A model generated the notes under the pieces. It saw only the letters and a program-made list of their open reading frames with translations. It did not search any database and was not told where the DNA came from. From positions 30,649,624-30,707,185 of the forward strand of contig JAHRHZ010000025.1 of the NCBI GenBank assembly GCA_024137785.1: a stretch of DNA of 57,562 bases, written 5' to 3'. The translations under genes were made by a program, and so were the position numbers. The DNA is from Ginglymostoma cirratum (lineage: Eukaryota). Shown piece after piece: positions 1 to 57,562 of this stretch (position 1 is its first letter; every line of letters starts with the position of its first letter).

Positions 1-127
1 GACATTTCGGGCCTAGACCCTTCTTCAGAAATCTGAAGAAGGGTCTACGCCCGAAACGTCAACCTTCCTGCTCCTCTGATGCTGCTTGGCCTGCTGTGCT
101 CATCCAGCTCTGCAACTTGTTATCTCT
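1..127 (+). mobile_element. Fold-back Penelope-derived short element (family A), truncated by window start
   Basis: Bases 1-60 form a near-perfect palindrome centred near 30. Bases 33-127 match the 3' end of the GIY-YIG PLE at 57446-57540 and the hairpin at 26705-26932. Confidence 0.85.
33..60 (+). ncRNA. Minimal hammerhead-ribozyme-like motif
   Basis: CTGAAGA(33-39)-A-GGG...CCC(41-52)-GAAAC-GTC. Stem I is weak. Confidence 0.55.
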
Positions 128-1099
128 GATTTAAAAATCAAGTGTTTTTGTAGCTCAGCATTTAAGAAAACAGTTGAATCTTAGTCTTGTCACTCGAACA
201 GCAATGGGATTTTTGATTGCACTGGTATTTCTGCATATAAATGACACAACAGGCAGCATTACAGAACCCATCAGATAGCATTTGAGACTGCTTTTCAGAA
301 GATTACCACTCCTTATGATGATACTGAAGACTGTAAACTATGTTTACCCTATAAACAAGCATACATTTAATGTATTCAATGGCATCCTGTATTTCCTAAT
401 TACTAAAATTATTTTGAAATGTAGCAGGCAGAAAAAGAACTAATTGTTTATCAGCTGAAATCGCAATGCAGTTAATAAGCTTGGTCTGCGATCTATCATG
501 AAAATGTGCACGGCACTCCATGTTCCCATGAAAACCAATATCATATTATCTCTTACAGAAAAGTGAACTGAATGGAGTCAGCCACATAATGCCACCAATT
601 CTACTTTTTTAAATCTACATTTTCCATTCACTGCAAGATAGGTTGCACTTTTTATTCCTCAGCAGTGAATAACTGACTTGAAGCCTGACATGTCGTAAAC
701 CTGTTCTTGATACTTTCAAATCATGCTCCCTAAAGTAAAGCAACTGAACAAATCTGATTGTCAATTAATTTTATCCAAATTCAATGGCATGTCTTTATAT
801 GACACAAGTTATCCGACAAAGCTTTCCGCATCTGGCTCTAGACAATTGCATATTTCCTCATTTCAATTAACTATCTCTGTGAAATATGCTTCTTTATTTA
901 GAAAATGCTGAAATATTCAAAGTATATTCATGTAAATAGCATTAAGTACAGCTCAACCAAGCATTGATGGAGAAAAGGCGTAATCGACAAATTTGGCGAG
1001 TGAAGGAATCTTATTAGGATTGATCTATTTCTAAAATCGAAGTAAGTTTTGCATTTATTGTTTAATTTACACAAGTGAATATTAAAATTAAGGTTTAGT

Positions 1100-3019: not shown

Positions 3020-3845
3020 GGACAGCAAGACTGTCCTAAGCAAGTGGTCTCCATTTTTGAATCATTGAGCTGGTATGCATTAAGCGACACTGAAATTGAA
3101 GGAATGGGGGGAGTATCTGGGCAGTTTTGTCCAGAACATAGCCATAACGCAGATGAAAAAAAAACATGAGCTCAGGAAAGGAAGGATATGACGGCTAGGA
3201 AAGCAGGTAGTGGGGATTGAGTAGAGATTGAGAACAAATAACTATAGATACCAGTCTGGTCAAATAAGTACAATGTACTCATTATCTGTGAGAACAAGAA
3301 AAGACAATGCAGATGAGGCAGCCACAATGCAGACCAAGTCATCATAGCTCAAGTGGGCGGTCAGAGTGGGGAAAAAAAAGAACAGAAATGCAGTACTAAC
3401 AGGGATTGTATAACTATAGGGATAATGTTGGCAAGGCACGAGCATTAAGAATGTCTTATGATGGCTGGAGGGGAATTTGGAAAGGGATGGGTAAACCAAA
3501 TTATTGTGGTCCATGTTGGAACAAATTATATTGGTAGGAACAATGAGGGGGTCCCATGGAATAACTAAATAAAAACCAAAAGAACAGCAAATGCTGGAAA
3601 TCAGAAACAAAAAAAGAAATTGCTGTAAAAGCTCAGCAGGTCTGGCAGCATCTGTGGGGAGACATCAGAGTCAATGTTTTGGGTCCAGTGAGCCTTCCTC
3701 AGAACTGATGGGAGCACATTTCTTTCCACAGATGCTGCCAGACCTGCTGAGCTTTTACAGCAATTTCTGTTGTTGCCATTGCCCATGGAAAGATTGTCAG
3801 GTATTAGGCTCTGAATTAAGAAGCTGGACCTCAAAGATAAAAGAA
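3020..3845 (+). mobile_element. Decayed CR1 ORF1 (SGNH esterase-like) remnant
   Basis: Translates to RNAVLTGD.. and IIVVHVGTNYIGR (cf. VHVGTND). It resumes after the hairpin insertion as KDCQVLGSELRSWTSK. Confidence 0.65.
3562..3781 (-). mobile_element. Fold-back Penelope-derived short element (family B) with putative 9 bp TSD
   Basis: Perfect inverted arms at 3615-3657 and 3726-3768. Flanked by cccatggaa at 3553-3561 and 3782-3790. Homologous to 5266-5504 and 49936-50035. Confidence 0.8.
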
Positions 3846-5265: not shown

Positions 5266-5504
5266 AAAAGTAAAATGAAAACTGAAAAAAACCTGCGGAT
5301 GCAGTAAATCAGAAACAAAAACAGAAATTGCTGGAAAAGCCTAGCAGGTCTAGCTGCAACTGTGGAGAGAAATCAGAGTTAACATTTTTGGTCAAGTACC
5401 CCTTCTGAGGAAGGGTCACTCAATCTGAAACATTAACTCTGATTTCTCTCCATATTGCTGCCAGACCTGCTGAGCTATTCCAGCAATTTCTGTTTGTTGT
5501 TTAA
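5266..5504 (-). mobile_element. Fold-back Penelope-derived short element (family B) with putative 8 bp TSD
   Basis: Inverted arms (~5312-5400 and 5405-5500) centred at cccttctgaggaaggg. The repeat aacctgta lies at 5258-5265 and 5505-5512. Confidence 0.8.
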
Positions 5505-8243: not shown

Positions 8244-8978
8244 GAGGAAGAAGAATACCTCTTCCAGGTTTTCAAGGATAATGGATATCCAAAAAACTGG
8301 GTCAGAAGATGCCTACACGAACATCATCAGGAAGATACTACACACCCCGACACACTCATCACACTACCCTACATCAGGAACACATCGGAACTAATCACAA
8401 GACTCCTACAACCGCTGGGCATCAGAGTGGCACACAAGCTCACATCAACCCTACGACAACTGCTCACCCGAACTAAAAACCCACTCCCTGCCATGGACAG
8501 GACTAATGTCTTCTACAAGATTTCCTGCAGAGACTGTGAGAAGCACTACACAGGACAAACAGGAAGGAAACTAACAACTAGGGTACACGAACACCAACTG
8601 GCTACAAAAAGACATGACCAATACTCACTTATCTCAATCCACATGGATAAGGAGAACCACCAATTCGACTGGGACAATACCAAAATCCTGGGACAAGCTA
8701 AGAAGAGACAGGAACAGGAATTCCGAGAAGCCTGGTACTCCACGAAGAGAGCCATCAATAAACACAGGGAACTCGATCCCATATACACTCCACTACGAAG
8801 GAAAACCAGAAGTGAGGCAATCCAGCTCAACAGACTCCAGAGTTTAAAGACCTGGCGGAAAACACACCAACGATTCATCGGAGGCTGCACTGATGATGTT
8901 ACCCAGCATGGTAACGAAACATCTGCGGAACAACAAACCAGCTCGGCGAGCCAACCAACCTCAACACCCACAACCTGA
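8244..8978 (+). CDS. Partial PLE polyprotein: RT thumb and GIY-YIG endonuclease (5' truncated, frame still open)
   Basis: The open frame from 8244 reads EEEEYLFQVFKDNGYPKNWV...LPYI...NVFYKISCRDCEKHYTGQTGRKLTTRVHEH...HQFDWDNTKIL...EAWYS. Confidence 0.85.
   Translation, partial: EEEEYLFQVFKDNGYPKNWVRRCLHEHHQEDTTHPDTLITLPYIRNTSELITRLLQPLGIRVAHKLTSTLRQLLTRTKNPLPAMDRTNVFYKISCRDCEKHYTGQTGRKLTTRVHEHQLATKRHDQYSLISIHMDKENHQFDWDNTKILGQAKKRQEQEFREAWYSTKRAINKHRELDPIYTPLRRKTRSEAIQLNRLQSLKTWRKTHQRFIGGCTDDVTQHGNETSAEQQTSSASQPTSTPTT
8885..8928 (+). ncRNA. Type I hammerhead-ribozyme-like motif
   Basis: Stem I is CTGCA/TGCGG and the core CTGATGA lies at 8890-8896, followed by an extra T. Stem II is GTTACC-cagcat-GGTAAC, then GAAAC-ATC. 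Confidence 0.75.
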
Positions 8979-9400
8979 GCTACAGATCTACTCCAATACC
9001 TTAGACACAAAAAAGTTTTAAGCTGATGTGTCATTTAGATTTATATTGTACGTTTTTTTGAATCACGCAACTGTTCTTTTCTTTCATTCATATCAATGAT
9101 TGTAAAATGGTTGGGAATAAGTTCTGTGCATTCAGTTTGCCTCATTGTAGTGAAATGGAACATCTAAAGAGAGAAATGGTATCCTGACTGAAAAACTGCA
9201 TCATGGGTTTGACAGCAAAAAATTTGACTTGAGTACATGTGACAATAAAGCTTAAATCAATCATATTAAATCAAAATTTGCTCATGTTTGCAAATTAATT
9301 TTGAAATTTGCTGGAACTGAGAGAGAAAAATAGGTCCCCCTAGAACTGATGATTGATATAGGTATTTGAGATAACAGCCAAGCAACTGCTTATTGAAGCT

Positions 9401-9456
9401 AAGATAACAAGGTGTAGAGCTGGATGAACACAGCAGGCCAAGCAGCATCATAGAAG
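9401..9456 (-). mobile_element. PLE family A terminal fragment
   Basis: aagataacaaggtgtagagctggatgaacacagcaggccaagcagcatca matches the left arm at 26705-26755. Confidence 0.75.
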
Positions 9457-10989
9457 CATTGCTTTGTGATTAAGGCCCAGAGAAAGACAGTAGATCTAGC
9501 AGGAGCTTTATATTGAGCAGGGATGGAATTAAAAACCAATCAAATTGGCCAAAAGCAGGGAAGTGACACCCAGTTAAAACCAGTAAAAGGAATAAAGGAA
9601 GCTTTTGAAGAAGGAATGGTTAATGCAGTGGGTGTAATGTTTTGATCAGCCACTCCTAAGACATTCTTGGAGAACTGTCGATGGATTGGCCGCTGAGACA
9701 GACTGTAGTTCATTGGGCTTCTAAGCAATCAGTGTCATTGGAAATAGGTACTCCTGTTTAGTAAGTGGAATATTTATTGGAACAATATTCAATTTGTTTT
9801 GCGTCTTCAATATCACGACTAGAATCTATAGACCAGGAATGGGAGTTTACAAGATAGAGAAGAAGCAACATTTTGCATTACACGTGAAAGAAAATCCTGA
9901 TCTGCAATATATCACAAACCATTATTGATACATTGACACATTAAATCACAATGTATAGAAAGTAAAGGAGAAGTATACAGATTGTGCACATAATTTCTGT
10001 CCTGGTGAGAATGTATGAATAAAGTCGTAATAAAATAGGTGACATATTTTCTCTTCCAGAAATTAAAAGGTATTATATGAAAAGTACAATCTCTCCTTTT
10101 TGTTCCTGAGAATTACTTGATTTGACATTGTCTAATGTGTGAAACAGGCATCATTTACTGTTCTCCTGCCCATTTTAATATGACACAATATCACACTCTC
10201 ATGTTCGCTTTCATGTACTATTCTGTATGTATCATTGATCTATTAGGTTACTATAGCACTTAACAAAGGCATTTTGCAACATTTCATATCAAATGGACAC
10301 CTTTCTTCCAAAGCAAAAGTCAGTGATTAGTGTTTAATGAAAGAGTTGTATTATCATTATTTAACTGATATGAATAAGGTTGCCGGAGAAAGGTGCAGAT
10401 TGAAGACCTAATGTACTCAGAAAAAAAACCTTTTAAATTGAGTAATAATCTTTGCAAAGTATTGGTTAAAATAGTAGCATGAGACGTGTAATCACTTGAA
10501 ACTTTTCTTTGACATGAGGCTTTATGACAAGTTCATATTCGATGATACTAATTAAAATGCTCAACTCCCAAAGGAAATGTAAAACTTACAGACATTTTCA
10601 CCTCACAGTAAATGGCTGATGTTATTAATGCAAAAATGGCTATTTATACTACAGTCAACAGGGTAAAATGTGGTCTTCCAAATTTCTCTTTAAATATAAT
10701 AATGGGTTTTGCTACAGACAGTACAATTAGATTTAATTCCTTTAATGCAGCCAAGATGGGTGAACATTGAACTGAAATAATTCCTAACATTTTACAAGTG
10801 CAACTTGGCTGAATATTATAAAGGATCATGTTCTGATAGAATAAGTCTTTATGCTTAATACAGTTTCTATTTATCATATTTCACAGAAGATCTGAACTCT
10901 AGAGAGGAGGTGAGAGTGACTGCACTTGTCATCTTGCCTGCATTTCAGCCATCAGAGAATCTTAATAAATTTGTGTCAATGAGAAAACT

Positions 10990-13960: not shown

Positions 13961-14928
13961 AAAGTTTTATGAACTGCTTTTTAATTTGTTTAATTTTGCT
14001 GCACTTCATCAACAACAGTGTAAGCTACAAAGTTTTAGCCAATGCAATAAACTGAACTTGTATAAGAATAATTTAAGTAGGTTAGTTTTGCTTTATGTAA
14101 GTATTGTCTTAGCATTACTTGATGAGTTAGTTTTCCTATTTTGAATCCTTGTAAAGCAATATGACTTCTGTTAAAATAATTTTCACATTTCTTCAGTCAC
14201 ATTAGCTGTTCAGATGGAAAGCATATTCCATCTCCTAGCAAATGTGCATTCATTGTACATCTTCTCAATAAAAATATAAAAATACAAATTCCTATCTACT
14301 AACACAAACATGCTGTGGATTGTGGAAAGAAGTAAAAATATCACAGTGATGAATTCACTAAGGAAAGCCTTGCCAACAAGATAGCAATCCTTTCATTTTA
14401 CTTTGTCTGCTGTGGCATTCATGAATTTTCAACTGAATACGTCCAAAAATAGTATCATCTGAGCTTACCAATAAGTAGCACATTGACTGGGAAAAAGTGT
14501 GCTTACGTACATAATTGTACTCAAATTTGCAACTGAAATTAAGCATGGTGCAATCCCAAACTCTTACATTGTATATACGACTGTCATAAGTCCATTCTTC
14601 AAAGCAGTGCATATAAAATAATCAGAAAGACAAAATAATGACTAATTATGAAAATAAATACCAGCACACAAAGGAAAGTGGGTGTTTTTTGCTTGTTGAG
14701 CTTGGTATTAATGGTATCATTTCAAAATGACATTGATAGCCTGCTCAATTTGCCATTTCAGAGCAGCTGATGCTGTTTTGCAAGGGGTGTGAAAGGATAC
14801 TGAAAGTGTGCCTATTTTTTAAAAAGTACTTTTACAGTGCAAGTTGAGAACCCAGAACTTCAAGTGCAATTGTTTGGTTAAATTAGTTTGGATGTGCAGT
14901 GTGAATGGTTTGATAGTTTTTTTTAAAA

Positions 14929-15254
14929 TAGAAGCCCCGCAGCGTGAAAACAGGGCATCCAGCCCATCAAGTCCACACTGACCCTCCACACAGCATCCCA
15001 CCCAGAACCATCCCCCTACTCTATTCCTGAAAGCCTCCATTTCCCATAGCTAACTGACCTAGCCTGGACACGATGGGGCAATTTAGCATGGCCAATCCAA
15101 TTAACCAGCACATCTTCGAGCTGCGGGAGAAAACCCATGCAGATACAGGGAGAATGTGCAAACTCCGCACAGATGGTCATCCAAGGCTGGGATTGAACTT
15201 GGTTCACTAGAGCTGTAAGGCAGCAATGCTAACCACTGAACCACCGTGCCATCC
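14929..15254 (-). mobile_element. HE1-type V-SINE
   Basis: Reverse complement has a tRNA-like head (ggcacggtggttcagtggttagc...aagttcaatccc), the V-domain gagtttgcacattctccc and a CR1/HER1-like tail. Confidence 0.9.
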
Positions 15255-16062: not shown

Positions 16063-16145
16063 AGAGTCTAAAGGTGTGAGACTGGAAAAACACAGCAGGT
16101 CTGATCGCATTTGAGGAGCAGGTAAGTCAATGTTTCAGGCCGATT
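16063..16145 (-). mobile_element. PLE terminal fragment (related family)
   Basis: aaggtgtgagactggaaaaacacagcaggtc...gaggagcagg...tgtttcagg resembles the family A arm. Confidence 0.5.
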
Positions 16146-17066
16146 TGGTCCATTTTGGACCTTATTGTCTCTCACATAGATTGCAGCCAGTTACCAACAC
16201 GCAGCTGAAATTTACACTCCTGAGACAGAGGGTTCAGAGGCTGGAGATGGGAATTTATTCACCCAATAGACGGCCTATTCCCTCTGTTCTGCCACTCTTA
16301 ATATATTGTCAGCAGTGGGGTTAACATTCTTGCCAGTAGGTCAATTGAGATTCTTAAGTGTGCAATTAATTCCCAATTAATGGCCCTGTCTTGTTGCCAG
16401 TAGGGCTTAACCAGGGGCAGCAGAAGCCCACATCTGACAGCCGGGCTGGTAGGTTTTCCAGGGCGTCAAGATTTTTAAGGCCCACATTGCTCTCACCACA
16501 TTTGTCCTTTTAAACTACACCTGTGACCTGCTCGTTTCACACCAAAGATGCCAAAACACTGACCCAAATGCCAGTCCAATGCCCTGATTGGCCAGCAGTT
16601 CTCTGAGGTGGGACTTTCTGTCTCAGAAGTCCAGCTCCTCAGTACATTGCAAGCTACCATTTAGTGCTTACCGGGAACAAGTGTTCCCTTTGGTGGGCTC
16701 CCTTCCACCTTAATCCTTAGCCTAGGAGAAACGGTCAGGAAGAAAATCCAGTGTCTCATGTAATTTGTCCCAAAGAATGGAAACAATTTATGGCACAGAA
16801 GGAAACCATTCAGCCCAGCTTATCCATGCTATCCAGCCTGATCCTACTTTCCAGCTCTTGGTCCAGAGCTCAGCAGGTTCCAATATCTCAAAAGCATGTG
16901 TTCAAGTGAGTTACACAATTTTATTAATGCAACGATGATTTCAGCCTCTAAAACTCTTCAGCTCCTCTGTCTGAAAAATACAACAGCAGCCCGTCAAATT
17001 TTACTCCTGCCTGAAATTCTCCTTTCTTGAGGTTGTTGACTTGCTCGCTGAGCTGACTTGTTTTTG

Positions 17067-17108
17067 TTCAGATGTTTCATCACCATGCTAGGTGACATCA
17101 TCAGTGGA
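17067..17108 (-). ncRNA. Hammerhead-ribozyme-like motif (antisense arm copy)
   Basis: Reverse complement is CTGATGA-T-GTCACC-tagcat-GGTGAT-GAAAC-ATC, with CpG-type decay. Confidence 0.6.
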
Positions 17109-17214
17109 GCCTCCGATGAAGCCATGTTATTCTACTCCGCTTGGAATTTATACTGTCTGGTCCGTCATGGTATAAATTCCAAGCAGAGTCGAATAACATC
17201 GTGTCATCGGAGGC

Positions 17215-17256
17215 TCCACTGATGATGTCACCCAGCATGGTGACGAAACGTCTGAA
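17215..17256 (+). ncRNA. Hammerhead-ribozyme-like motif (intact core)
   Basis: CTGATGA(17219-17225)-T-GTCACC-cagcat-GGTGAC-GAAAC-GTC(17250-17252). Confidence 0.75.
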
Positions 17257-17409
17257 CAAAAACAAGTCAGCTCGGCGAGCAAGTCAACAACGTCACCCAC
17301 AACCCGAGATACAGATCTTTACCGATACTTTATTCTCCATTCTTGATAACAATTGTTGTAAATCTCCTCTGTACACTCTCTTTACCCGCATCTACAAAAT
17401 TAAAGGCAT

Positions 17410-22984: not shown

Positions 22985-25030
22985 AATCTTAATTTCCCAT
23001 CTGAAATGGCCGAGCAAGCCATTCAGTTGAGTCAAATTATAACCTATGCTATTGGTAACAACAAAGGCTCACCTAACTCATTTTTCCTCACTAATATCTC
23101 GGAACATGTGCTGACATTGGGAAAGCTGCCTTATCAACCAGTAAGCAAAATTTTGATGTTGTCATTAACATGAAATCAAACCTTACAGAAATGTCTCAAC
23201 TTCATCATTACTATCCCTGAGCATGTTCTGTTCCACTGGTGTAACAGATTAGCCAGAGGTGACAGAATGTTTGCGTACAATCGAAAGGAAGTGAACCTGA
23301 GAGTTTTCAACATTGACTCTAGACTCAGGTCAAACGTGGGTTACAGAATCGCCTGTTGATTTCAGCCCTTCTACCATAACCAAGCCAGGGGACGTGGTTC
23401 AATTCTAATTCAATGAGCACACCATCAGCAGAGGCACCAACACTAAGCATTCCTGAAAGTGAAATGCCAATCAGATGAAGCTAAAAATAAAGGACAACGT
23501 TGATGTTAGGAAGCAGAAGCAGCATGTGATAAGGGAGCTAAGTGATCCACAATCAATGCATCAGGTCAAATCCCTGCAGCGTTGTCACATCCAGTTGTGA
23601 ATGGTTGTGGACAATTAAACAACTAACCAGAGGAGGAGAAAACTACATAATATTCATAAACCAGTAATGACAGATCCAGCATCTCTGGTCAAAAGACAAG
23701 GCTGAACGTTTGCAACCATCTTCAGCCAGAAATATCAAATGGATGATTCCTCTCAGCTTCCTGCTGATGTTCCCAGCATCCCAGATGCCAGTCTTCAGCC
23801 AATTTGATTCAAATTAAAAGGTGCTGAATAAAACAAAGGCAATAGGGCCTGACAGCATCCGAGCAGTAGTTCTGAAGATTTGTGCTCCACAAATGCTGCA
23901 CCTCTAGCCAAGATATTCTAGTATAGCGACAACACTGGCACTTACTAAGTGGTGTACAAAACTGCCCAGGAATGTCCTTTTCACAAAATGGAGAGCAAAT
24001 CCCATCCAGCCAACTACCACTCTACCAGAGATAGTAAGAAGTGCTGATGCTGGAGTCTGAGATAACACAGTGTGGAGCTGGAGGAACACAGCAGGCCAGG
24101 CAGCGTCAGGGGAGCAGGAAAGCTGATGTTTCAGGTTGAGATCCTTCTTCTGAAATGGGGGAGGGGAAGGGGGCTCTGAAATAAATAGAGGGAAGGGGGT
24201 CAGGCTGGGGAAAGTAAGTGGGATGGTGATAGGTGAGTGCAGGTAGGTAGTGGTGGGGATTGGTCAGTGAGGTGGGAGGAGCGGATAAGTGGGATAGAAG
24301 ACAGACAGGTCAAGGAGGCGGGGATGAGAGGGAGGATTGGTCATGGGATCAGGCTGGGGGTGGATCCCAGCGTTCAGAAAATGCTGAAAGATGTGACCCA
24401 TTGTGCTATCGAACAGCATTTACTCAGCACTAACCTGTTCATCAACATTTTGCTTGGTTCTGCAAAGGTGGCTTGGCTCTAGACCTCATTTAGTCCAGAC
24501 ATGACAAAAGAGCTGAACACAAAAAATGAGGTGATAGTGACTCACCCTTGATACCAAGGCAACATTCGACGAAGTGAGGTATCAAAGTATCGTTTCTAAA
24601 CTGAAGCCAATGGGAATGAGGGGAAATCATATCTATCAGTAAAGAAGATGTTGAAGGTCAATCTTCTTAGACACTGAGCATCACTGCATAAGTTCTTTAT
24701 GAAAATGTCCTACTTCCAATTATCTTCAGCTGCTTCACCAGTGACCTGCTCTCCATCATCAGGTCACAATTAGGGATGGCTGTTGCAGATTGCACATTTT
24801 CACTATCACTCACAATTCCTCAGGGTACTGAAACAATTCAAATCCACATGCAACAGAAGCTAGAAAATATGTACACTTGGGCTGAGAAATGGCAAGCAAA
24901 TTTGTGCCACACAAGTGCCAGGCAAGAACCATCGCTGTGAGGAGAGAAAATAACCAATTCCCATTGCTAACACCAGTGCTGAAACCTCCAAGATCAACAG
25001 TGCTGGGTGGCTGTTCACCAGAGACATAAC
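22985..25030 (+). mobile_element. Decayed LINE (APE and RT), same family as 10990-11650 and 25060-27065
   Basis: Reads KAIGPDSIRAVVLKICAP and PANYH; its 5' part aligns with 25310-25700. Confidence 0.75.
24026..24365 (-). mobile_element. PLE family A 3' end (pyrimidine-rich UTR and terminal repeat)
   Basis: Reverse complement is colinear with 57160-57562. The hammerhead-like core is decayed. Confidence 0.85.
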
Positions 25031-26685: not shown

Positions 26686-26704
26686 CCAACATAATTTGCA
26701 ACCT

Positions 26705-26932
26705 GAGATAACAGGGTGTAGAGCTGGATGAACACAGCAGGCCAAGCAGCATCAGAGTAGCAGGAAAGCTGATGTTTCAGGCCTAGACCCTTCTTCAGAA
26801 AATGAAGAAGGATCTAGGCCTGAAACGTCAGCTTTCCTGCTCCTCTGATGCTGCGTGGCCTGCTGTGTTCATCCAGCTCTACGCCCTGTTATCTCAGATT
26901 CTTCAGCATCTGCAATTCCTACTATCTCTGAA
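26705..26932 (+). mobile_element. Fold-back Penelope-derived short element (family A) with 14 bp TSD
   Basis: Inverted arms of ~93 bp centred near 26800 plus a ~37 nt tail. The repeat ataatttgcaacct lies at 26691-26704 and 26933-26946. Confidence 0.92.
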
Positions 26933-36295: not shown

Positions 36296-36606
36296 ATAGA
36301 TAATCATAGAATCCCGAAAGCCATTCAGCCCATCGAATCTGCACGGGCCCTCCAAAGTGCATCCTGCCCAGACCCATCTTTCCATCCCCATAATCCTGCA
36401 TTTACCACAACTATCCCATATAACCTGCACATCACTGGGCAATTTGGCATCTTTGAATTGTGGAAGGAAACCAGAGCACCCAGAAGAAATCCATGCAATT
36501 GCAGGAAAAATGTGCAAACTCCACACAGACAGTGACCCAAGGATGGAATCGAACTCAGGTCCCTGGTGCTTTGAGGCAACAGTGCCAGTCACTGTGCCAC
36601 TGTATC
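36296..36606 (-). mobile_element. HE1-type V-SINE
   Basis: V-domain tgtgcaaactccacacagac, B-box gagttcgattcc on the reverse strand, and tail catagaatccc. Confidence 0.88.
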
Positions 36607-37909: not shown

Positions 37910-38270
37910 GTTCTCCATGTTTATCACATTTTCTACCCCTCCCTCCCTCACAATCATGTTATGTTTGTGTCTTGTTTTCTTCGTACTTAGTAAAAAGAAT
38001 AAAATTTCTCCCTTTCACATTTTAATTTACAGCCTTTTTACATTTCATTTCCTTTCCTTCTCCACAATTGATAACCCTCTCATGTTTTCCACTGGGCCTG
38101 TACACGACCTGTTTTCTTGGTCTTCCTGTTCCTCTGTCATAAGTATTCAAAAAAAAAAATTTCCAACACCTTTCAATTCTTTCAAGAGTCATACTCAAAA
38201 TATTAACTCTGTTTCTCTCTCCACAGATACTGCCATCTCTAGTTTCTGCAGCAATCTCTTTTTTTGTTAC
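37910..38270 (+). mobile_element. Old PLE 3' end remnant
   Basis: A pyrimidine-rich tract is followed by attaactctgtttctctctccacagatactgcc, matching the family B arm. Confidence 0.55.
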
Positions 38271-40062
38271 TTAAAGCTGAATATATTTACAGCTCCAAGA
38301 AGAACCTCTCTGCAGTTTCAGTCTAAAAATTGAAGCCAAAAGTGAATTAAACCTTACTAAGGTGTTAGATACAGGGACAGTATTGTACAAATGATGAATT
38401 AGATACTGTGTCTGCGGTGTATTTTAAATACTGTACAAAAGCTGATTTTGTTTTTCATTTTATCAAGGAGTGATTTGTGACTAGTGGGATTACACTTCGA
38501 GCATGTTTTTAAAATCGTTGAATTTGCATTTTAACTAGACAGTTTGGGTTATCTATTTCATCTCCATTTCTTTTATAATAAATTTCTGTTTTATTGCTAA
38601 AACAAAATCTGCAGCACTGCATGCTTATGTTCAAGTGAGAGACCACTTGGTTGAAATCAAAACAAATAAAAATATGATATATCAAGCCAGGTTTCCATTT
38701 GGGATCTGACTTGTCTGATAATAACATCAGCTGGGATCATAACACAACGTACACCCAATGAAACAAAATGCTCAAAGTGCCCAAACTCATTTCACTTAAG
38801 ACACATATAGCTGAGAGAGAGAGAGGAGAGGTATCAAGACTAAAGCATATTCTTTATTTCAGAACAATTCACCACACAGCAATGAGAAAGTGATTTATTT
38901 TCAGGACAAATCTATCAAGCTACGAATTGCATCTGATCAAGTGAACAATGGATGCTGAAGTCATCATGGCCTACTAAGCAATGCATTTACTGATCAAAAT
39001 ACACATTTATTTATTGAACAAAGATGGGGAAAAAAGTCATTACCTTAGCTGTATGTCTCAGAGCGTGTGCATCAACAAGCAAATTTGTTCTACAGATATA
39101 AATATTGTGAAGCAGACAGAAGCATCAGCATGTTTCATTTGCATTCCCACTGCACATTCTCCCATAAATCAACATTTCATTAAAACTGCTGGAAAAGGTC
39201 AGTCACATATTTTTCTTGGAATTTATTTCTATCTCATCTGCTGTAGTAAGTATGATAAGCAAAACCTTAACAACACATGCCAGAGAATCATGGGTAATCA
39301 TTGCTATTATTCAGTGAATGATGCACATCCAAATAAAACTGAAAATGTGTCTCCATTAGGAGCCCCATTGTATCGTGAGGTATTAGAAATGTATAGATTG
39401 GTCAGGGTTTTGTACAGTATGTATTTCAGTTTCTCAAAGGGAATGATTCACTGGTAATAACTGTTTTCCATGCACACTATACTCAGAAATCCAGGATTAA
39501 AAGATTAATTGAGAAAATGTATGTATCCCTTCCACAATCCGGACATAGGTGAAGATTTAAACCAATAAAAAGGTTGACTGGGGCATTAGGGCCTGTTGAA
39601 GTTTTGTAAATCAGGTTCCTGATGCAAAATCAACTCTATCTAAAGACTTCTGATTTTAACGAAAGTGACAATGAGGCTGAACGACCAATCTCCAGCAAGG
39701 ATATGAATATGATGTTTCCCAGTTTTAAACAGCTTGCAACTTCACGGAAGGCTGAGATTGCTCAGCCTCAGCTATTTCCAGGAGAGGATTTGGTAGAGCC
39801 AGTAAGTGAGGTACTCGCACAACAGGTCTCAGATCCAACCACACCTTTATTGAGGCTTGCTATTCCCTCAAACCCTAGGCCCCTGGCCTCATCACCAGGT
39901 CTTCAACTCTCCACCAACATAAACTCTGTGCTACTGGGCCTCTGAAATTTCCTTCAAGGCCTTCACTCCACCTAATTGCACCGAACGTGCACACCTATAT
40001 GTCCTGCATGTTCTCCACAAGTCTGCAATCTCCTCACTTCAGGCTTCCCATGCCAAAGCAGG

Positions 40063-40205
40063 AGTTCGAAAGAAATGTCATACCAGACTTCACATGTTAA
40101 CTCTATTTCTGCCTCCTCAGATGCTGCCATGCCAGACCAACAGAGTTTCTCCAGCATTCTCTGTGTTTGTTTCAGGTTTCCAGCAACCACAGTAATTTGG
40201 TTTGA
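40063..40205 (+). mobile_element. PLE terminal-repeat remnant (family B-like)
   Basis: gttaactctatttct...cagatgctgcc...ccagcattctctgtgtttgtttcaggtttccagca. Confidence 0.65.
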
Positions 40206-47144: not shown

Positions 47145-47670
47145 AAACTGGTGGTGTGATGGCAATTTCACTGATTAGTAATCAAGTAACACAGGCCAAC
47201 CTTCTAGGCACATAGGTTTGAATCCCACCATGGTAGGTCATGAATTTAAATGAAATTAGAACAGTGGCATAATAGCAACCATGTTGATTGTCAGAAAAAA
47301 CACATCTTGTTTGTTAATTTTTCAAGTCAAGTCACCCTTCCTCATAACTCAACCCAAAACATTAACTCTGATTTCTCTTCACAGATGCTGCCAGACCTGA
47401 TGAGCTTTCCCAGCAATTTCTGTTTTTGTTTCTGAGTTACAGCATCCGCAATTCTTTCAGTCTTTGTTTGCTAAAGTTCTTCAGAGAGGAAAAACTGCAA
47501 TCCTTGCCTGGTCTGGCCTATATGTGACACCAGGCCAATTGACATGTGGTCGATACATAAACTGGTGATTCTCAGAAATGACTCTTAACTTCCCTCGGGG
47601 GAATTACAGATGGGCAATAAATGCTACCCTATGCAGCGACACCCACATGTCATGCATGAATAAAGGAAAA
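47145..47670 (+). mobile_element. tRNA-headed short non-autonomous element related to the 5' end of the 25060-27065 LINE
   Basis: A-box-like tggtgtgatgg (47152-47162), B-box-like ggtttgaatcc (47215-47225) and an A-rich end ggcaataaatgct...atgaataaaggaaaa. Confidence 0.7.
47320..47463 (+). mobile_element. PLE family B terminal fragment with collapsed hairpin centre
   Basis: cacccttcctca...aacattaactctgatttctcttcacagatgctgccagacctg plus tail; possible TSD ttgtttg(t/c)taa. Confidence 0.75.
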
Positions 47671-47802: not shown

Positions 47803-48100
47803 TGGCTCAGCTAGTAATACTCTGGGTTTTGAGTGAGAAGGTTTGTGGGCCAAGTCTTGCCAGGGGACTTAGCCATAAATAAAGCTGAAGCTTTAGTCCA
47901 TTACTGAAGGTATGTGGCATTGTCTTTTGGAAAAGATATTTAAACCAATGTCCTGCATTCTCATTCAAGTGGATGTAAAAGATACCAAAGTGCTATCTTG
48001 AAGAAGAGCAGGTGACTCATCTCCATGCATTCTGCTAAATACTTATCCATCAATCAACATTGATAAAACATTATCTGGTCATTTTGACATTGTTATTTTT
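47803..48100 (+). mobile_element. DeuSINE (SacSINE1-like), interrupted at its 3' end by HE1
   Basis: tRNA-like head tggctcagctagta, then Deu domain gtggatgtaaaagatacc...tgaagaagagcagg...attatctggtcatt. Confidence 0.75.
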
Positions 48101-48402
48101 ATAGATCCCTACAGTGTGGAAACAGGCCCTTCGGCCCAACAAGTCCACACCAACCCTTGGAGCATCCCTCCTAGATCCATCCCCCTATAACCCACCTAAG
48201 GTACACATCCCTGAACTCTACAGGCAATTTAGCACGGCCAATCCACCTAACCTCCACATCCTTGGACGGTGGGAGGAAACCAGAGCACCCAGAGGAAACC
48301 TGCACAGGCACAAGGAGAACGTGCAAACTCCACACAGACAGTCGCCCGACGGTGGAATCTAACCTGGGTCCCTGGCGCTGTGAGGCAGCAGTGCTAACCG
48401 CT
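48101..48402 (-). mobile_element. HE1-type V-SINE
   Basis: Colinear with the other HE1 copies. Confidence 0.9.
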
Positions 48403-49935
48403 TGCTCTATCTCAAGCCTGAGAACAGTATGCAGCCATTGTTTAAATGTGCAGTAACGTTTCTAAGGCTCTCACATGTAGTTGCTAAACCAATTCAACCA
48501 TTTTGGCAGTAATCTCTAGTCAAAGCCTTGGTATTTGAAACTGATTGAGTCACAAGATTGTAGCTACTGTGAGAAAAAAAAAACTGTTCAAGTGGTATAA
48601 TGGCCAAAGGGCAATGATATTTCTTTCAGTACGATTCATAACGTAAATTAATGATTAGATATTGTCAGTTGTTATGCTGCAAATAAAGAGTTCTGTTTGT
48701 AGCCATGAATTGAACTTTAAGACGCCTGTTATTCTAAAATGAGCTGCACAATTCATAATAAAGCAAAAGAAGTTAAAATCTTTGCCACTTATGGAAAAAT
48801 GACAACTGTGCTTTCAATTTATAGCTCCATTTTGCAGGTATATCAGGAAAAGGCTGGAAAGCGGAACTAGTTGAGTTATTCTAATAGAAACAACTGGAAT
48901 TGATATAATGGGCAGAATCTTGCGGAGGCTTGAACAACAAGGTCTATGGTGAGAATTGTAGTCGAATCATGCAAGATGTTCAGTGAGGCATGTCTTGTCC
49001 TTGGGGACCACTTGCTGCATCTTTTTACTAAATTTCCAGAGTGGAGGTGAGATGCTCAATGGCAGTGGCAGGTTGCCTGTTAAAGGGGGATTACTGTTTC
49101 TTAACAACTTTATTGAAACATACCTCTTTTATTCACTTCCTACCCAACCACACGGCATGAGCAAACCAGATGTTGAGAATTTAACAACATGGAAATCAGA
49201 GCAAGCAGTTGGTGACTCTGCTTGATATTGGCTCTGAAGAACCTCCACACTGGTCACTTGTTTTCATTTTGTATTTTTACACTATGTCTCTATTTATATA
49301 CCCAACGATTCACAAGCTTTATTAACAGCTGTTTCAAGTTGCCTGGCCACCTTCAGAGAATGATGCACTTGAATCCCAAGGTCCCTAAGCTCCTGTACTC
49401 CCTTCAAGTGTGCTATTGAGCCTGGATTGTCTCTCAGTGTTTCTCCTACCAAGGTGCATTAGCTCACATTTCTCTGCATTGATATTAACCTGCCAGATGG
49501 TGTCTGCCCATTTGGCCAAATTGTCAATGTCCCTTGGAAGTTGCTCAGTGTCATCCTCACAATTCACTATTCTCCCAAGTTTCGTATCATCTGCACATTG
49601 AGAGATTTTGCCCTCATCAATCATCTCCATATCATTTATATAAATCAGAAAAAGCAAGGGCTCAAACGCAGATCCCTGGGAAACTTTTAACTTGTCTCCA
49701 ATCTGAGAAATGCCTTTCTATGCCTTCCCTCTTTCTCCTATCTTTTTAGCCAACTTCTAATGCATCAATCTCAAACATTTCTAATTGGTAACCAATCTGC
49801 CCATGTCGCACCATATCAATTGCTTTCTGAAAATCCAAATATACATTATTCATAGCACCACCCTCATTCACAGCCTTTATCATCTCAAAGAACTCAACTG
49901 AATTTGTCAAAAATGTCCTGCCCTTGACAAAGCCA

Positions 49936-50035
49936 ACAATGAAAACAGAAGTTGCTGGAAAAGTTCAGCAGGTCTGGCAGCATCTGTGAAGAGAAATCAG
50001 AGTTAACGTTTCTGGTCTGGTGACCTTTCCTCAGA
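49936..50035 (-). mobile_element. 100 bp single-arm PLE family B insertion with 9 bp TSD
   Basis: acaaagcca lies at 49927-49935 and 50036-50044. Removing the insert restores CR1 QHGFVKG. The element starts TCTGAGGA-AAGGTC-acca-GACCA-GAAACGTT. Confidence 0.9.
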
Positions 50036-51430
50036 ACAAAGCCATGTTGTGTCATATTAACTTGCTTTTTCTCTAAGTGTACATTTATCCTGTATTACGG
50101 CCTCTAACAGTTTTCCCACTCCTGATGTCAAGCTGACAGGTCTATAGTTTCCTGGGTTATCCTTTGCCCCTTTCTTAAATAATGGTGTCACATTTGCAAT
50201 CCTCCAGACCCATGGGGCTGATCCTGCATTCTGAAATGCCTGTAAAATTCTTGTCAAAGGGTGCACAATTTGTTTCCTTTACTTAATGTAAATGTAAGAT
50301 ACATCCTATCCGGGTGACTTATCTACCTGGAGTGCGGCCAGCCATTTTTTGCACTTCCTCTTTATCTGTCACTATACTGCTCAGTTGCTCAACACCCACA
50401 TTTTCAAATAGGCCATTGTCACTATTTCCTAATTTTCTAAAGAGAGAAACAAAGTATTAGTTTAGTACCTCTGCTGTACATTTTGCTTATCCTAATTGTT
50501 CCTTATGGACCCCACTCTAACTGCCACTAATATTTTACTATTAACATGTTTAAAGTACATTTTATTATTTGTTTCAGCACAGCCTGACATCCTTTCCTCA
50601 TGCTTCTTCTTAGCCTTCCGTATTCTAGCCTTATCCTCTCTTGTACATTTGAGATCTTCTTCCTGATTTCTACTGTTATGATTATTCCAGTGCACCTCAT
50701 ATGCCTCCATTTTCTCCTTTACTTTCTCATCAATATCCTTAGTCGTCTGGGTTACTCTAGTTTGGATAGCCCAGATTTATTTATCTAGGTTGCACCCTAT
50801 TCATCTTTTTTGAAATTCTCCCATTTTTTATCCATCTTATCCACCAAAATATGTTCCAAATCATCCTGCTCCAGTTCAACTTTTAAACCCTTAAAATCTA
50901 CCCTTTTACAGTCTGGAATCTTAATCCTTCAATGATTATTATCTTTTTCCAACTTAATATTGATTCTTATTTTATTATGATTGGTACTTCCCATATGCTT
51001 TCCCATTCTGATGTTGTCCATTTGGCCTGCCTGATTTTCTAGGACCAGATCCAGTACAGCTCCCTCGCTGGTAAGGCTGGAAATGTTCCAGAAAGTTCTC
51101 CCCTTCCATGCCCCATACTCTAGCTTTCTACCTGAGGGTAACTGAAATCACCAACCATCACAACCCAACCTGTCCTGCAGACCTCTATAATCTGCCTGCA
51201 AATACGCTCTTCTTTTTCCTCCCCACTATTTGCAGGTCTATAAAAATACCCAGCAAGGTCACTGCTCCCTTCCTGTTTCTCTTCTTTAACATACAGATTC
51301 TTATTTAGGAATTACATCTTGTTTAAGGGCTATGATACTATTCGAATCTCCTCCCTTTTTATATACCTGTGTCTATTAAAAACCTTATGACCCAAGATGT
51401 TAATCATTCTGTCCTGTTCTGGCTTACTGA

Positions 51431-51713
51431 GAGAAGAACATATAAATGTATAAGGATGTCAGTCAAGCAAAGTAAACATTCCACTTCAGTTTGTTCAGAC
51501 TCTTGCAGAGCTAATGCATTAGAGTATCTTGGAGTTCAGCCAGGCATTCATAATGAATCCAGATGGAGTATCATATTTATGGTCATCTGTTTCTGCTGAT
51601 ACAGGTTCCATAAGGATTCACTATAAATTCTTGGCTGAGTTGGGTGAATACTTATGCAGTTGCCATGGGGGTAACATGGGGAAACATGATGAGAGTGAGA
51701 GAGCCAAATCATT
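51431..51713 (+). repeat. ~283 bp direct repeat, copy 1 (inserted in CR1 APE)
   Basis: Ungapped alignment to 52328-52610 at offset 897. Confidence 0.93.
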
Positions 51714-52099
51714 TGCTGTTCTGTCAATGCTACTATGTCAAATCTGCCTGGAATAATTTCTACATCCAATTCCCTAATTTTGTTCACTATACTCTGTGCA
51801 GTTATATACATACAGTTTTACTCTGCGCTTATCTCTTTCTTGATCAATGGAAGGTGACTATGTCGAGTGCAATTGAACATCCCTTTACAGGATCAAATGT
51901 TGAAATGCTGTGAAGAATAAAGTGCCCTTTCAGAAATCTGCCCTGAAAAGTAACCTACTTGTTCCAATAACCCTATCAATGTATTTCTGAGGCAAGCCAT
52001 TCCAGTATCAATAATATAAACTTTACTTATGTACCACCTCTTAATATTGTTTAAATAAACATACAGACTTTGACAAAAGAATCAGAGAAATATTCAACG

Positions 52100-52309
52100 C
52101 CTACAGTGTGGGGCAGGTGGTTCAGCACATCGACTCCACATCTAACCTAACCCCATAGCCCTGCATTTCCCATGCACCTCTTTGGACTGTGGGAGGGAAC
52201 TGGAGCACCTGGAGGAAACCCACGTAGACGCGGGGAGAATGTGCAAACTCCACACAGACAATCGCGCAAGGGTGGAATCATACCTGGGTCTCTAGCGCTG
52301 TGCCGCCCC
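52100..52309 (-). mobile_element. HE1-type V-SINE, internally deleted
   Basis: V-domain ggagaatgtgcaaactccacacagac with a partial tRNA head. Confidence 0.85.
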
Positions 52310-52327
52310 ACTGAAAGAGGTTATTAT

Positions 52328-52610
52328 GAGAATAACATATAAATGTATAAAGATGTCAATCGAGCAAAGTAAAAATTCCACTTCAGTTTGTTCAGACTCT
52401 TGCAGAGCTAATGCATTAGAGTATCTTGGAGTTCAGCCAGGCATTCATAATGAATCCAGATGGAGTATCATATTTATGGTCAGCTGTTTCTGCCGATACA
52501 GGTTCTGTAGGGGTTCACCTCAAATACTTGGCTGAGTTGGGTGAACACTCATGCAGATGCCATGGGGGTGGCATGGGGGAACATGGTGAGAGTGAGAGGG
52601 CGAAATCACT
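52328..52610 (+). repeat. ~283 bp direct repeat, copy 2
   Basis: Ungapped alignment to 51431-51713. Confidence 0.93.
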
Positions 52611-53413
52611 TTTAAGTTCCTGATAATCAAAGTGCCTTCTAACCAGCTGACCTTGGCACCTGCCTGCCCTGTATCTGTGCACTGAATGAAATTTGGCAAT
52701 AAGGGAATCCTTTAAATGGACGCATGTCTGCTGAGTTAGGAGATTTCCCAACCTGAGCCAATCACATTGATTGTGAAAACACAAATGAGAGATACAGCGT
52801 TGTGGGGAGTTTGGGCCAGGTTGGAAATACGGTCTGATTTTCATCATCTGCTGATAGCAGTTGACAATTACATGTGGATTTTTTTTGAATGGGTGTAATA
52901 AAAAATGGGGGGACTAAAGTTTAACCTTTGATCCCAAAGAGCATTTTTTATCAAACTGAAGGAAAATAAATCATAAGTAACAGGTACAAAAAGTGTTGAT
53001 TCAAACTGGTGGTGACTTGCAATTCCAATATTATGATTTATGGAGACCAGAAATTGAATTTCCAGCAATTAACACAGTCTTCCATATCAGTTCCATAAAG
53101 GGCACTTCCCAACCATATACACCTTATTTGTGCAACAATGCTAGCAAAAGCAACATGATTGGGGATATAAAAATAGGTCATCATCAAAATGAGCTAGTCC
53201 CTTACATGTACCTCTGCCATGTTCTCTGTCAGCACTACCAACATTAAAGATGAGAGGTGGCATTTGGGTGGACTGCCCACTGGTAAGAGGACCCATCATC
53301 TTAACTTGCTGATGCATGAGTGCAGATAGTCATGTGTAAGCAGAAAAACATCTCTCGCAAATCACTGCCCATCCTCCAATCCTTGAAGAGAACTCATCCT
53401 CTTTCAAATCCCT

Positions 53414-53945: not shown

Positions 53946-56902
53946 TTTGAGGACTATGACTCTATGATTCTATGACTAATCAATGACTTATAAAGGTTTG
54001 TGTTGATGTTTATCTTCTCCTTATGCTTACTTAGTAAATAAAATTACTAACCCATGCAAAAGGGTCTGGTTAATATGAAAATGCCTGGGTTCACTTATTA
54101 AAAAGTTTAAAAAATGGCAGTAGTATTACATAGTTAGAAAACTTGCGTACACGTCACAGTTGATAGTTTCCTTGGTACAAACTATACACTATTTCTGAAT
54201 TACTTGCTACATTGTATCGATTCCTCTCTAGTGATAGCAAACATAAACACACTCACTTCAGAGTGTGCCACAGTTTGTATTGGAAGACTTATACTGATGC
54301 TTTGGAAAAATAATGAAACAATTGCTACAATGTCTTCAGGCATTAGAAAAATTTATTTACCTCTCTGTAAGCGCAAACTTGCCAGATTTGTCAACTGTTA
54401 TTGTGTGCTTGCTTGCCTTTCCTGCCACTACCTGCCTAACACTGCATCTTATAAAAATGGTTATGTGTCATTGTCAGTATGTCAGTACACCTTTAAGAGA
54501 CACAAGAGGTCAGTATGCTTTTAAGAGACATGCTTATAATATGAGCACTTCATTGTAGCGTGTGACCCAAAGATACAAAGATCTCATAGTCCATCTTAAC
54601 TGAGATCACTTGAAGCATGACATACTACTAGAAGGATGCTGCAATCTGCTATAAACTAATATCTGAGCTTCATCCATTTATACGTCCATGAATGTGATGT
54701 TTGTATGTAATAGTAAATGCAATAAATGTCTGGTGGAATCTAAAAGTATCAGAACTTCCACACCTAGTTTCTTATGTTATGAGAGTTAAGATAAGTATTG
54801 CTGCATCAGGTAATATCCATGCTGGAGGACAAGTTTACATCAAAGCCTTAATTTCCATGTTATTTTTAAGTTATTGCAGTAGGAGAATGTGCAATGGCTG
54901 AAAATACTGGAAGTTCCTGAATTGGAAAGTGAGATGTCCTAAAAATAAGTAAAAACTGCTGATATTATTTTGACTGTAAAAATACATCTTAAACATTTCA
55001 GAATCCAAAAGTAAATATTTGACTAAGACCTTTAAATGTAAAACAAATGTAAACCATTTATCACTTCAAGCATTAATTAATACATATTTTGCTAAGGCTC
55101 AGCCAGAGAAACAGCCATAAAAACACCAAGACAGTGGTTAAAGTGGCACAGATACGTAAGGAAGTTGTTGCACAGTTACTCACAATTGTACACTGCTTGT
55201 GAAAAATGGATTTCAGAACTTAGGATAGACAATTCTGTTTACTTTTGAACAAAATTACAGATAACTGCTACATAATAATTTAACAATTAAGCAAATGATT
55301 TATTCACAGAAAATGGTAATCAGGAGCAAACTATCAGAAGTAGCATTTCATTTAATCAGTTATTAACTATATTTTATGAAAATATTATGCAGTTCTGAGT
55401 CTTGCATTCAAACATTGTCAGTGATATGCATTTGTTCTGACCTGGCATTCCAATTATAATTGCACAATTCCAAATACTTTTATTTTCCATAGGAAAGCAT
55501 TTTTTCCTCCAATTTAACAATCTCTTAGAGCTGCATACTAACTCCAAGACTTTATTATTTTATGTCTGCAACAGAAAATGTTTGATACACTGGAATGACA
55601 CATTGAAATTATTTTTCAACCCCAGATTAATTGAAATTGTTCTGACTATACATCATTATTTAGATTGGTCCAGTTTGAATCAATTGGAGCTATTGATGCC
55701 ATTGCTTATTATTTTGCATAAATGCAATGTCATGTAACACTTAAAGCTGCTTCACAACAGAAAAATTTTCAATAACAAACGAGAGCTTGATTAGTTTCCT
55801 TTGAAACTCACAGTTAGGGAAGTGTTCAAGATCTTTTCTGCTGACCAGTTCCCTAAAATAAAATCATATAGTCCTCTCCCATTTCTGTGTTGCCCTCACC
55901 ATCTCTGGTTCTTCAATGCTAGATGAGCTGAACTCATCATGGGGCTGAAAATGCAGTCCACCCACAGTCAGTGTGTGTTCTGAGTGTGTGTGAGTTGATC
56001 TTGTGCTATAATACAAGGTCAGCTCATTTAAATTAATTTTCAGCATTCCCCTCACATAGCATTGGACATCCCACAAGGTGCAGGGGTCAGGCAAAGGGTT
56101 ATCCATTACTTGCAGCTCTTAAAAAGGGGATAGGCTTCAAATGAAAAATCTGCTGAAACAAAACACCTTAGCAGAAAATCACAGCCACAGAGAAGAATGA
56201 CCTTTTTGGAGCATAGATTGGCTTCTACTTGTGAATAGTCTCAGTCTGGCCTTAATAGAAAAGTGATTGAGAGAGTGAAAGGTATTTGACTATCACCGAA
56301 ACTTAAGGAAAATTGCTTGGTTATACTGTCTTGCCAAAATGAGTGTGCACATATTTTGTGTGAATTATTCTCTTAATAGCATTTCAGTGTAATAGTGTCA
56401 ATGATCAATGGTCTAGAAAATGTTTGTGTACATTTGAATGAATGGATAGTCCCTGTTGCACTTTGCTTTGCAGGCCTCATGTGTTTTCCCTGCAGCGTCC
56501 TGGGATAAAAAGCCATGCATAAACGTCAACGTTGCTTTCTCTTCATTGATGCTGAGTTTTTCCAGCAGTTTCTGTTTTTGTTGTGGTACAAAAACTGCTG
56601 GTCTAAGCATCTGTGTCACACAGATCAGATACTGTGCTCCTTCCAGCACGTGCCTCCATGGTACATTTGCTGCAGAAAGTGGTCTCACAAATGCAGTAAT
56701 AGCAAATACAGGCATTACAAATAAGTTGGAGCCACAGCTCCTCCTAAAGAGAAGTCCCTCAAGGATCTAGAAGGGCTCAGCACTCGTATCAAATCTTCCT
56801 TCTTCATCCATTCATCTCCATAGTGACTAGCATTTACACTGCAGTAGTATACTTCAAACAGCATCTTTTATTCCTAACATTATAAAAAATTCCTTGGGGA
56901 AA

Positions 56903-57562
56903 AAGCTTGGGGACCGCTTTGCAGAACACCTGCGCTCAGTTCGCAACAAACAACTGCACCTCCCAGTCGCGAACCATTTCAACTCCCCCTCCCATTCCTC
57001 AGACGACATGTCCATCCTGGGCCTCCTGCAATGCCACAGTGATGCCACCCGAAGGCTGCAGGAACAGCAAATCATATTCAGCCTGGGAACCCTGCAGCCC
57101 AATGGCATCAATGTGGATTTCACAAGCTTCAAAATCTCCCCTCCCCCAACCGCATCCCAAAACCAGCCCAGCTCATCTCCACCTCCCTAACCTGTTTTTC
57201 CTCTCACCTCAAGCCACACCCCCATCTCCTATCTACTAACATCATCCCGCCCCCTTGACCTGTCCGTCCTCCCTGGACTGACCTATCTCCTCCCTACCCC
57301 CCTACCTACACTCACCTTTACTGGCTCCATCCCCGCCTCTTCGACTTGTCTGCCTCCTCTCCACCTATCCTCTCCTCTATCCATCCTCTATCCGCCTCCC
57401 CCTCTCTCCCTATTTATTTCAGAACCCTCTTCCCCTCCCCCATTTCTGATGAAGGGTTTAGGCCCGAAACGTCAAGTTTTCCTGCTCCTATGATGCTGCT
57501 TGACCTGCTGTGTTCATCCAGCCCCATGCTTGTTATCTCGGATTCTCCAGCATCTGCAGTAC
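56903..57562 (+). mobile_element. 5'-truncated Penelope-like element (family A): GIY-YIG C-terminus, pyrimidine-rich UTR and terminal repeat
   Basis: ORF 56894-57190 reads LGDRFAEHLRSV...PVANHFNSPSHS...EQQIIFSLGTLQPNGINVDF. Its 3' end matches the hairpins at 1-127 and 26705-26932. Confidence 0.92.
57443..57476 (+). ncRNA. Minimal hammerhead-ribozyme-like motif
   Basis: CTGATGA(57446-57452)-A-GGG-tttagg-CCC-GAAAC-GTC(57471-57473), with a palindromic ACGT in place of helix III. Confidence 0.6.

Follow-up and report, generated by a model that had tools for sequence, protein, structure and literature searches.

Minimal hammerhead cores of Penelope-like elements in Ginglymostoma cirratum and the recurrent 5′ edge of their short copies

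The 57,562-nucleotide stretch of Ginglymostoma cirratum contig JAHRHZ010000025.1 that was analyzed here (the window) contains termini of Penelope-like elements (PLEs) with hammerhead-like cores, which raises the question of what these cores are and how the short copies that carry them came about. An earlier note on this DNA had assigned the termini to three unrelated-looking families, A, B, and C, with one hammerhead architecture. All of the cores that it cited for the three families were found at their coordinates, and the very long apparent open frames were rejected because they run through N-runs. The features of the window are as follows.

1..133, unstranded: family A fold-back with cores at 1-28 (minus) and 33-60 (plus) and the junction just 5′ of both; an N-run cuts the left arm.
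3571..3775, unstranded: family B fold-back with a decayed core at 3673-3702 (minus) and long tail, and a tail-only short arm (plus); 9-bp target duplication.
5278..5500, unstranded: family B fold-back with a decayed core at 5405-5434 (plus); 8-bp target duplication.
8244..9002, plus: 5′-truncated copy of family C1 (putatively Poseidon-type) with a GIY-YIG frame at 8244-8978, core at 8890-8923, and long tail.
9392..9477, minus: family A remnant, tail only.
16070..16141, minus: decayed family A remnant, part of the core plus tail.
17027..17331, unstranded: family C2 fold-back with cores at 17071-17104 (minus) and 17219-17252 (plus) and a junction 49-61 nt upstream of either core; 7-bp target duplication.
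24038..24198, minus: old family A copy with a C-rich 3′ UTR and a decayed core at 24125-24152.
26699..26924, unstranded: family A fold-back with cores at 26771-26798 (minus) and 26802-26829 (plus, C3 lost), one short and one long tail; 14-bp target duplication.
38194..38293, plus: decayed family B tail.
39981..40203, plus: B-like decayed copy.
47352..47464, plus: family B, part of the core and long tail.
49937..50038, minus: family B solo mini-copy that starts ~3 nt 5′ of its core (50005-50034) and sits in a LINE RT fragment; 9-bp target duplication, read by eye.
56520..56582, plus: family B tail remnant.
56903..57562, plus: young 3′ end of family A (putatively Neptune-type) with an endonuclease C terminus at 56903-57139, C-rich UTR, core at 57446-57473, predicted cut at 57473/57474, and a tail that runs to an N-run.
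57440..57446, plus: 7-mer that we take to be initiator-like; it overlaps the 5′ arm of helix I (57442-57445), and short copies begin at the homologous position.

Hammerhead cores and the elements that carry them

The CUGANGA and GAAA boxes and a UH cleavage triplet are present in families A, B, and C. A single unpaired base precedes helix II (A in families A and B, U in C), and helix II is closed by a G10.1-C11.1 pair, with G at 10.1 in 97% of the A and 93% of the B cores. Helix III is absent, and a palindromic ACGU stands in its place; these are the majority letters in all families, with CpG decay in many copies. Helix II is pairable over 4 bp in A (GGGT-loop-RCCC), 5 bp in B (GGGTC-loop-GACCC), and 6 bp in C. 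The single minimal-hammerhead architecture is therefore confirmed for all families in its core boxes, extra base, ACGT, and pairable helix II. The accompanying statement that stem II differs completely between families does not hold, as the A and B helices are related (GGGT.. and GGGTC..); in the family B copy that was quoted for it, the closing pair of helix II is decayed. Between the C1 and C2 forms, helix II differs by a compensatory change from U-A to C-G (32 versus 24 copies among the four commonest variants). No helix II covariation was seen inside A or inside B.

It is nearly certain that these motifs are PLE minimal hammerhead ribozymes (min-HHRs). As first posed, the finding is the description of these motifs published in 2014 (PMC4209133), to which only scale is added. 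The accessible text of that paper gives the same type I topology without helix III, palindromic positions 15.2-16.2, the extra base between 9 and 10.1, the G10.1-C11.1 pair, several consensus families per genome, and occurrence as single motifs and opposite-strand pairs. Helix I measures 4-5 bp there; here it has 3-4 bp in the A exemplars (fewer in one subfamily), 4 in B, 5 in C1, and 2 ungapped in C2, which is the form that had been quoted earlier for family C. Differences lie in helix II, which has 7-8 bp there versus 4-6 bp here, and in copy number: ~4,000 copies in coelacanth and ~9,000 in Xenopus are reported there, as opposed to 62,296 exact copies of one family here. The motifs were found in fish Poseidon and Neptune elements, and sharks are not named in the main text (PMC4209133). 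Shark motifs may be listed in the supplements of PMC4209133 and bioRxiv 10.64898/2026.07.22.740005.

A strict descriptor matched the window 8 times (200 shuffles: mean 0.03, maximum 2). In 100 blind 10-kb tiles of the 4.36-Gb genome it gave 41 matches over 522,176 readable bases, compared with 0-3 in 10 shuffles. Because 45 of the 100 tiles consist entirely of N, the resulting density of 79 per Mb is valid for readable sequence only, and extrapolation from it yields roughly 180,000 intact cores in the readable genome. The genome-wide numbers for family A are exact pattern counts: the 29-nt pattern occurs 62,296 times and its reversed control 0 times, which bears out the expectation of many ribozyme-like cores genome-wide. 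An Rfam scan of the window returned no hammerhead family and 3 weak hairpin matches, a silence that is explained by the minimal motifs lacking helix III.

In each family, the core lies 3′ of a GIY-YIG/reverse transcriptase (RT) Penelope-like ORF, in sense. The family A core follows the GIY-YIG C terminus at 56903-57139, and longer copies give RT and GIY-YIG Pfam matches; a first look at the genome yielded 101,531 candidates for this C terminus, and the 150 that were scored are all 99-100% identical. The family C core sits at the end of the frame at 8244-8978, and longer copies carry RT (Pfam); this frame has 49,228 genome candidates, and 149 others that were scored show 80-88% identity. Family B is without a frame in the window, and 5 of 30 fetched copies reach into a broken frame homologous to A. 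Named relatives of the A protein come from carpet sharks: Rhincodon (91%), Stegostoma (87%), and Chiloscyllium (58-63%).

A and B are identical at 66 of 104 aligned bases over core and tail, and the tail alone beats 300 of 300 shuffles. Their endonuclease (EN) regions are 44-57% identical; C matches A only across 63 amino acids, at 33-37%. The protein identity, tail, and helix II start common to A and B, together with the distance of C, argue for two clades instead of three unrelated families: A and B are related in core, tail, and protein, and only C is distant. A CX2-5CxxC linker between RT and EN is present in the A and B translations, and the C translation (8244-8978) lacks the Cys linker and has CCHH in EN. 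This linker is described as a mark of Neptune that is common to Nematis (text of PMC8557442). Assigned by the linker motif rather than a reference tree, A and B would be Neptune-type sisters and C Poseidon-type.

The earlier note had further suggested that the cores need dimerization or are inactive on account of a weak stem I. The dimer need or inactivity stands, but its reason is the missing helix III and not a weak helix I. By prediction, cleavage would require a dimer or the help of a protein. For PLE min-HHRs, even dimers are reported to have low activity (PMC4209133), and a dimer study of PLE hammerheads by Lunse et al. is summarized in PMC6765202. In the predicted monomer folds of A and C, the core pairs with its own GUC; the B folds are of little weight, as both exemplars are decayed copies and one was mis-parsed. 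Among cores with canonical spacing, 40 of 88 in A and 5 of 46 in B are fully intact (boxes, closing pair, and ACGT), and the losses in genomic copies are concentrated at CpG positions inside the core. Inserted cores thus appear to decay neutrally, with a same-strand partner presumably out of reach for most, so that most would be passengers.

Copy anatomy and the 5′ register

From 140 tiles (917,440 readable bases, the last 40 tiles picked beside readable ones), 154 A, 106 B, and 9 C terminal copies were collected. Every family has two 3′ end sites, 25-35 nt apart. Close head-to-head pairs (n = 52, 4 of them from the window) combine one long and one short tail in 46 cases (p 5e-9 versus 50%), and target duplications of at least 7 bp flank 40 of the 52 pairs, as compared with 6.7% in the control. 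Junctions and spacers are different in each pair, and short copies carry subfamily variants common to long copies.

By drop-off extension, homology breaks off within 16 nt upstream of the core in 49 of the 92 A copies and 44 of the 57 B copies, versus 4 of 92 C copies (Fisher p 3e-14 for A and 2e-21 for B). The A and B sets come from the blind tiles and the window and exclude copies whose core could not be located or whose flank contains N; the C set comes mostly from core-anchored searches rather than blind sampling. Exact homology is lost in 50 of the 92 A copies and 44 of the 57 B copies, almost all at -1 to -6; two of the B cases belong to a subfamily that has a UTR of its own, and the flanks beyond are otherwise unrelated or inverted. 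Copy ends spread over ~6 nt. The 5′ register falls where helix I ends on its outer side, in A as well as in B, and in both it coincides with the A of the presumed initiator-like 7-mer. A cluster of C starts at -18 to -21 (7 of 92) is too weak to call.

The same edge is seen in other counts. Among the 62,296 exact A cores, 55,772 have the 3 upstream bases and at most 30,890 have 9, the 9-base pattern being 3 nt shorter at its 3′ end; young long A copies keep all 9 upstream bases in 16 of 17 cases. Model starts fall at -8 to -1 in 47 of 161 cases for A and 44 of 115 for B. No enrichment of starts is seen within 3 nt of the cut site (6 of 161 in A, 6 of 115 in B), and cleaved RNA was rejected as the main template for this reason.

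In read set X21, depth over family B rises from ~100 to ~3,700 across the 5′ edge, with 1,412 reads that have an unrelated flank at -3. Among the inversion joints listed, 11 of 15 in B start at -7 to 0, and 8 of 15 in A at -3 to -5. As these reads are equal on both strands, they would derive mostly from copies inside host transcripts and are taken to sample the genomic copies rather than expression of the elements; for A and B, no sites were listed in X21 where many molecules begin or end. Read set X22 gave only 20 and 36 reads. A snap-back through helix I (-4 joined to +32) fits some A read joints, and a subfamily difference at 57474-57478 can mimic it; this joint is clearly shown by none of 25 A pairs.

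At 30 loci with the element's 5′ internal region, the core is visible in 14. Eight of these begin 2-7 nt before the core, one abuts N, and five extend further. In several such loci, a jump from an internal position leads into a second copy that also starts at the 5′ register. None of the 30 is a full-length copy with a visible 5′ end; two run past 1.4 kb. The sequence upstream in four long A copies and in one copy of B likewise showed no full-length element.

The base next to the register is biased as well. A base other than C stands at -5 in 5,195 A cores, and the first 100 listed, which were read without flanks, have G 59, A 31, and T 10 times (p 6e-13 versus 25%). Among fetched short A copies, G is the first base other than C at -5 or -6 in 12 of 23 cases (p 0.004); restricted to -5, it is 6 of 13 (p 0.07). 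The excess in these fetched loci is smaller and is partly a long-copy variant (2 of 8 G cases). At -4, short A copies often carry T (21 of 61). In family B, G occupies -5 in 0 of 7 non-C cases and -4 in 6 of 8 non-A/T cases. Such an extra G would be left wherever C is added without a template at the end of the RNA copied. It is also a described trace of cap copying by L1-type enzymes (PMC4038843).

Origin of the short copies

Taken together, a model can be proposed in which the hammerheads lie in the pLTRs of three PLE families, and the short A and B copies would arise when reverse transcription runs off the RNA end, which would be uncleaved, probably capped, and located 3-5 nt upstream of the core. 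A probability of roughly 60% is assigned to this model; run-off as the source of the short copies, considered by itself, is likewise judged fairly probable. There is perhaps an even chance that capped RNA of the shark Neptune elements starts at the first base of the hammerhead, with overlapping promoter start and ribozyme, and that the copies are strong-stop-like twin target-primed run-off cDNAs. From the register at the initiator-like site, the G excess, and the start site of Penelope, we infer that the RNA starts at the ribozyme. For Penelope, this site lies in the pLTR (PMC2377424).

In a full transcript, the priming sites would be present in two sets. The 3′ set would prime ordinary 5′-truncated copies, and the 5′ set, in the 5′ pLTR, would prime strong-stop-like copies of 100-135 nt. 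Priming at both target ends, with each end using a different site, would yield head-to-head pairs, and after run-off the enzyme may jump to another RNA position. The RNA would begin at the ribozyme, which would be uncut during copying.

The pile-up could alternatively be a reverse-transcription barrier, either a C-run upstream of A or an anti-core hairpin, and not an RNA end. This is unlikely: A does have a C-run that starts at -5, and a stretch upstream is complementary to part of the core in all three families and folds over the core in the A, B, and C2 exemplars, yet B stops at the same register without a C-run, C has a 7-bp anti-core hairpin without a pile-up, and a stall does not predict the G excess. 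A little less likely still is an RNA end at -4 that stems from processing rather than initiation, by a 5′-3′ exonuclease halted at the motif or at a bound protein, or by splicing. The end matches the outer end of helix I in A and B, an intron of D. virilis Penelope ends at helix I (PMC4209133), and one B form has AG at -4/-3. However, a weaker G excess is expected from an uncapped end, and the flanks have no exon in common; a splice acceptor at helix I was rejected for A and the other B form, which have no AG there.

Short copies make up about half of the A cores and most of the B cores, which would fit a separate non-autonomous SINE- or MITE-like family amplified from short masters. Such a family is improbable, since junctions and spacers vary from pair to pair, short and long copies have subfamily variants in common, and some copies with the short start run on into the element's 5′ internal region. 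Least credible is an origin from ribozyme-cleaved or circularized RNA, with the cores as active, selected genomic ribozymes. The core boxes kept across clades and the compensatory change between C1 and C2 do indicate selection on the motif in active lineages; against selected genomic ribozymes stand the absent start excess at the cut site, the CpG decay inside cores, the monomer folds that occupy the core with its own GUC, and fold-back partners that lie on opposite strands.

Known systems and implications

The run-off model can be set beside retroviral strong-stop DNA, a short cDNA whose priming site lies close to the 5′ end of the RNA. The product proposed here differs in being target-primed and integrated directly. 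A G opposite the cap, as with the L1 extra G (PMC4038843), is a likeness by analogy and not membership. Closer is PAc, the Poseidon of Anolis carolinensis (Frangieh et al. 2024, PMC11167929), which primes internally at two sites and extends both strands, in agreement with the anatomy of the pairs found here. The accessible text of that study likewise has two priming sites downstream of the ribozyme that lead to an optional tail, use of uncleaved RNA, and no cut-site ends; in PAc the ORF starts inside the motif, whereas the family A frame apparently starts ~165 nt after the core, and a fixed 5′ end of short copies is not described in that text.

The copies here have the build already known for insertion units of EN+ PLEs: 5′ truncation, an inverted 5′ copy, a 30-40-bp tail that is often one-ended, target duplications of 8-10 bp, and a pLTR motif resembling an initiator (Craig et al. 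2021, PMC8557442; Arkhipova et al. 2013, PMC3846280). As far as these texts go, they have no fixed truncation point, in contrast to about half of the copies at one 5′ register here, and their head-to-head junctions are attributed to self-priming on antisense RNA. Animal non-LTR retrozymes (bioRxiv 10.64898/2026.07.22.740005) also have a type I hammerhead and are PLE-derived, with one chondrichthyan sampled in the part of the preprint available, but they form tandem arrays. No tandem array of non-coding core-bearing units occurs in the window, and the copies lie scattered or in head-to-head pairs. The literature searched, which covered few subscription papers, gave no report of short copies with a fixed 5′ register or of a strong-stop-like PLE product.

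How PLEs transpose and what their hammerhead does are described as open questions in PMC11167929 and PMC8557442. A young family with >60,000 exact cores, a fixed 5′ register, and long/short pairs provides an in vivo record for testing the two-site priming seen in vitro, and the register names one base for cap mapping. The fold-back copies in host transcripts may also be a large source of double-stranded RNA. If the RNA indeed starts at the hammerhead, tens of thousands of junctions would be a record of where the RNA begins, of cap copying, and of template jumping, and they would show that the ribozyme was uncut at the time of copying.

Repeats and broken LINEs in the window

The Penelope-like elements share the window with several other repeats. 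A 340-nt repeat, which we take to resemble the shark HE1 SINE, is present in six copies that are mutually 66-80% alike. An inverted repeat of ~296 bp, whose arms are 78% alike and separated by 1.3 kb, is possibly a decayed DNA transposon, and a direct repeat of 291 bp has copies that are 90% alike and lie 897 apart. Two broken LINE reverse transcriptase (RT) fragments are found on the minus strand, the second of which is interrupted by a family B mini-copy (a short copy that starts just 5′ of the core).

Repeats and LINE fragments (window positions)
14928-15255, 25996-26356, 29192-29509, 36322-36603, 48089-48402, 52173-52337: 340-nt repeat
33723-34017 and 35291-35562: inverted repeat
51424-51714 and 52321-52611: direct repeat
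43791-45444, minus: broken LINE RT fragment (Pfam RVT_1 for 43794-45023)
49850-50700, minus: broken LINE RT fragment

Elsewhere in the genome, an inverted family B insertion at locus L287 adjoins an exon resembling a short-chain dehydrogenase, presumably DECR1-like (minus strand, ~720-850 of the reverse complement).

Family A copies

Both window ends (positions 1 and 57562) enter N inside a young family A copy, which is what assembly breaks at young family A repeats would produce. In the young family A insertion at L285:230-628, fragments of the tail recur and two copies follow one another, starting at -4 and -5 relative to the core; this structure suggests serial template jumps. In the young subfamily, an AUG within the core opens a 14-codon frame (window 57449-57493) upstream of the main frame. 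The family A fold-back at window 26699-26924, a head-to-head copy pair, has to its left, 14 nt away, an 88-bp perfect tandem duplication (window 26506-26685).

Sequences upstream of the cores

TATA-like AT-rich boxes lie ~50 nt 5′ of the C1 and C2 cores of family C, in the window and at loci L223-L282. Family C copy starts form a weak cluster at -18 to -21 (7/92 copies). Families A, B, and C each carry, just 5′ of the core, a stretch whose sequence complements a portion of the core box.

Upstream features
Window 8840-8850 and 17165-17175 region: TATA-like boxes, C1/C2
Window 57420-57452; window 8875-8896; L024:1495-1510 (a locus elsewhere in the genome): core-complementary stretches

The complementary stretch could keep the 3′ pseudo-LTR copy inactive, and a family A transcript starting at -4 would be without it.
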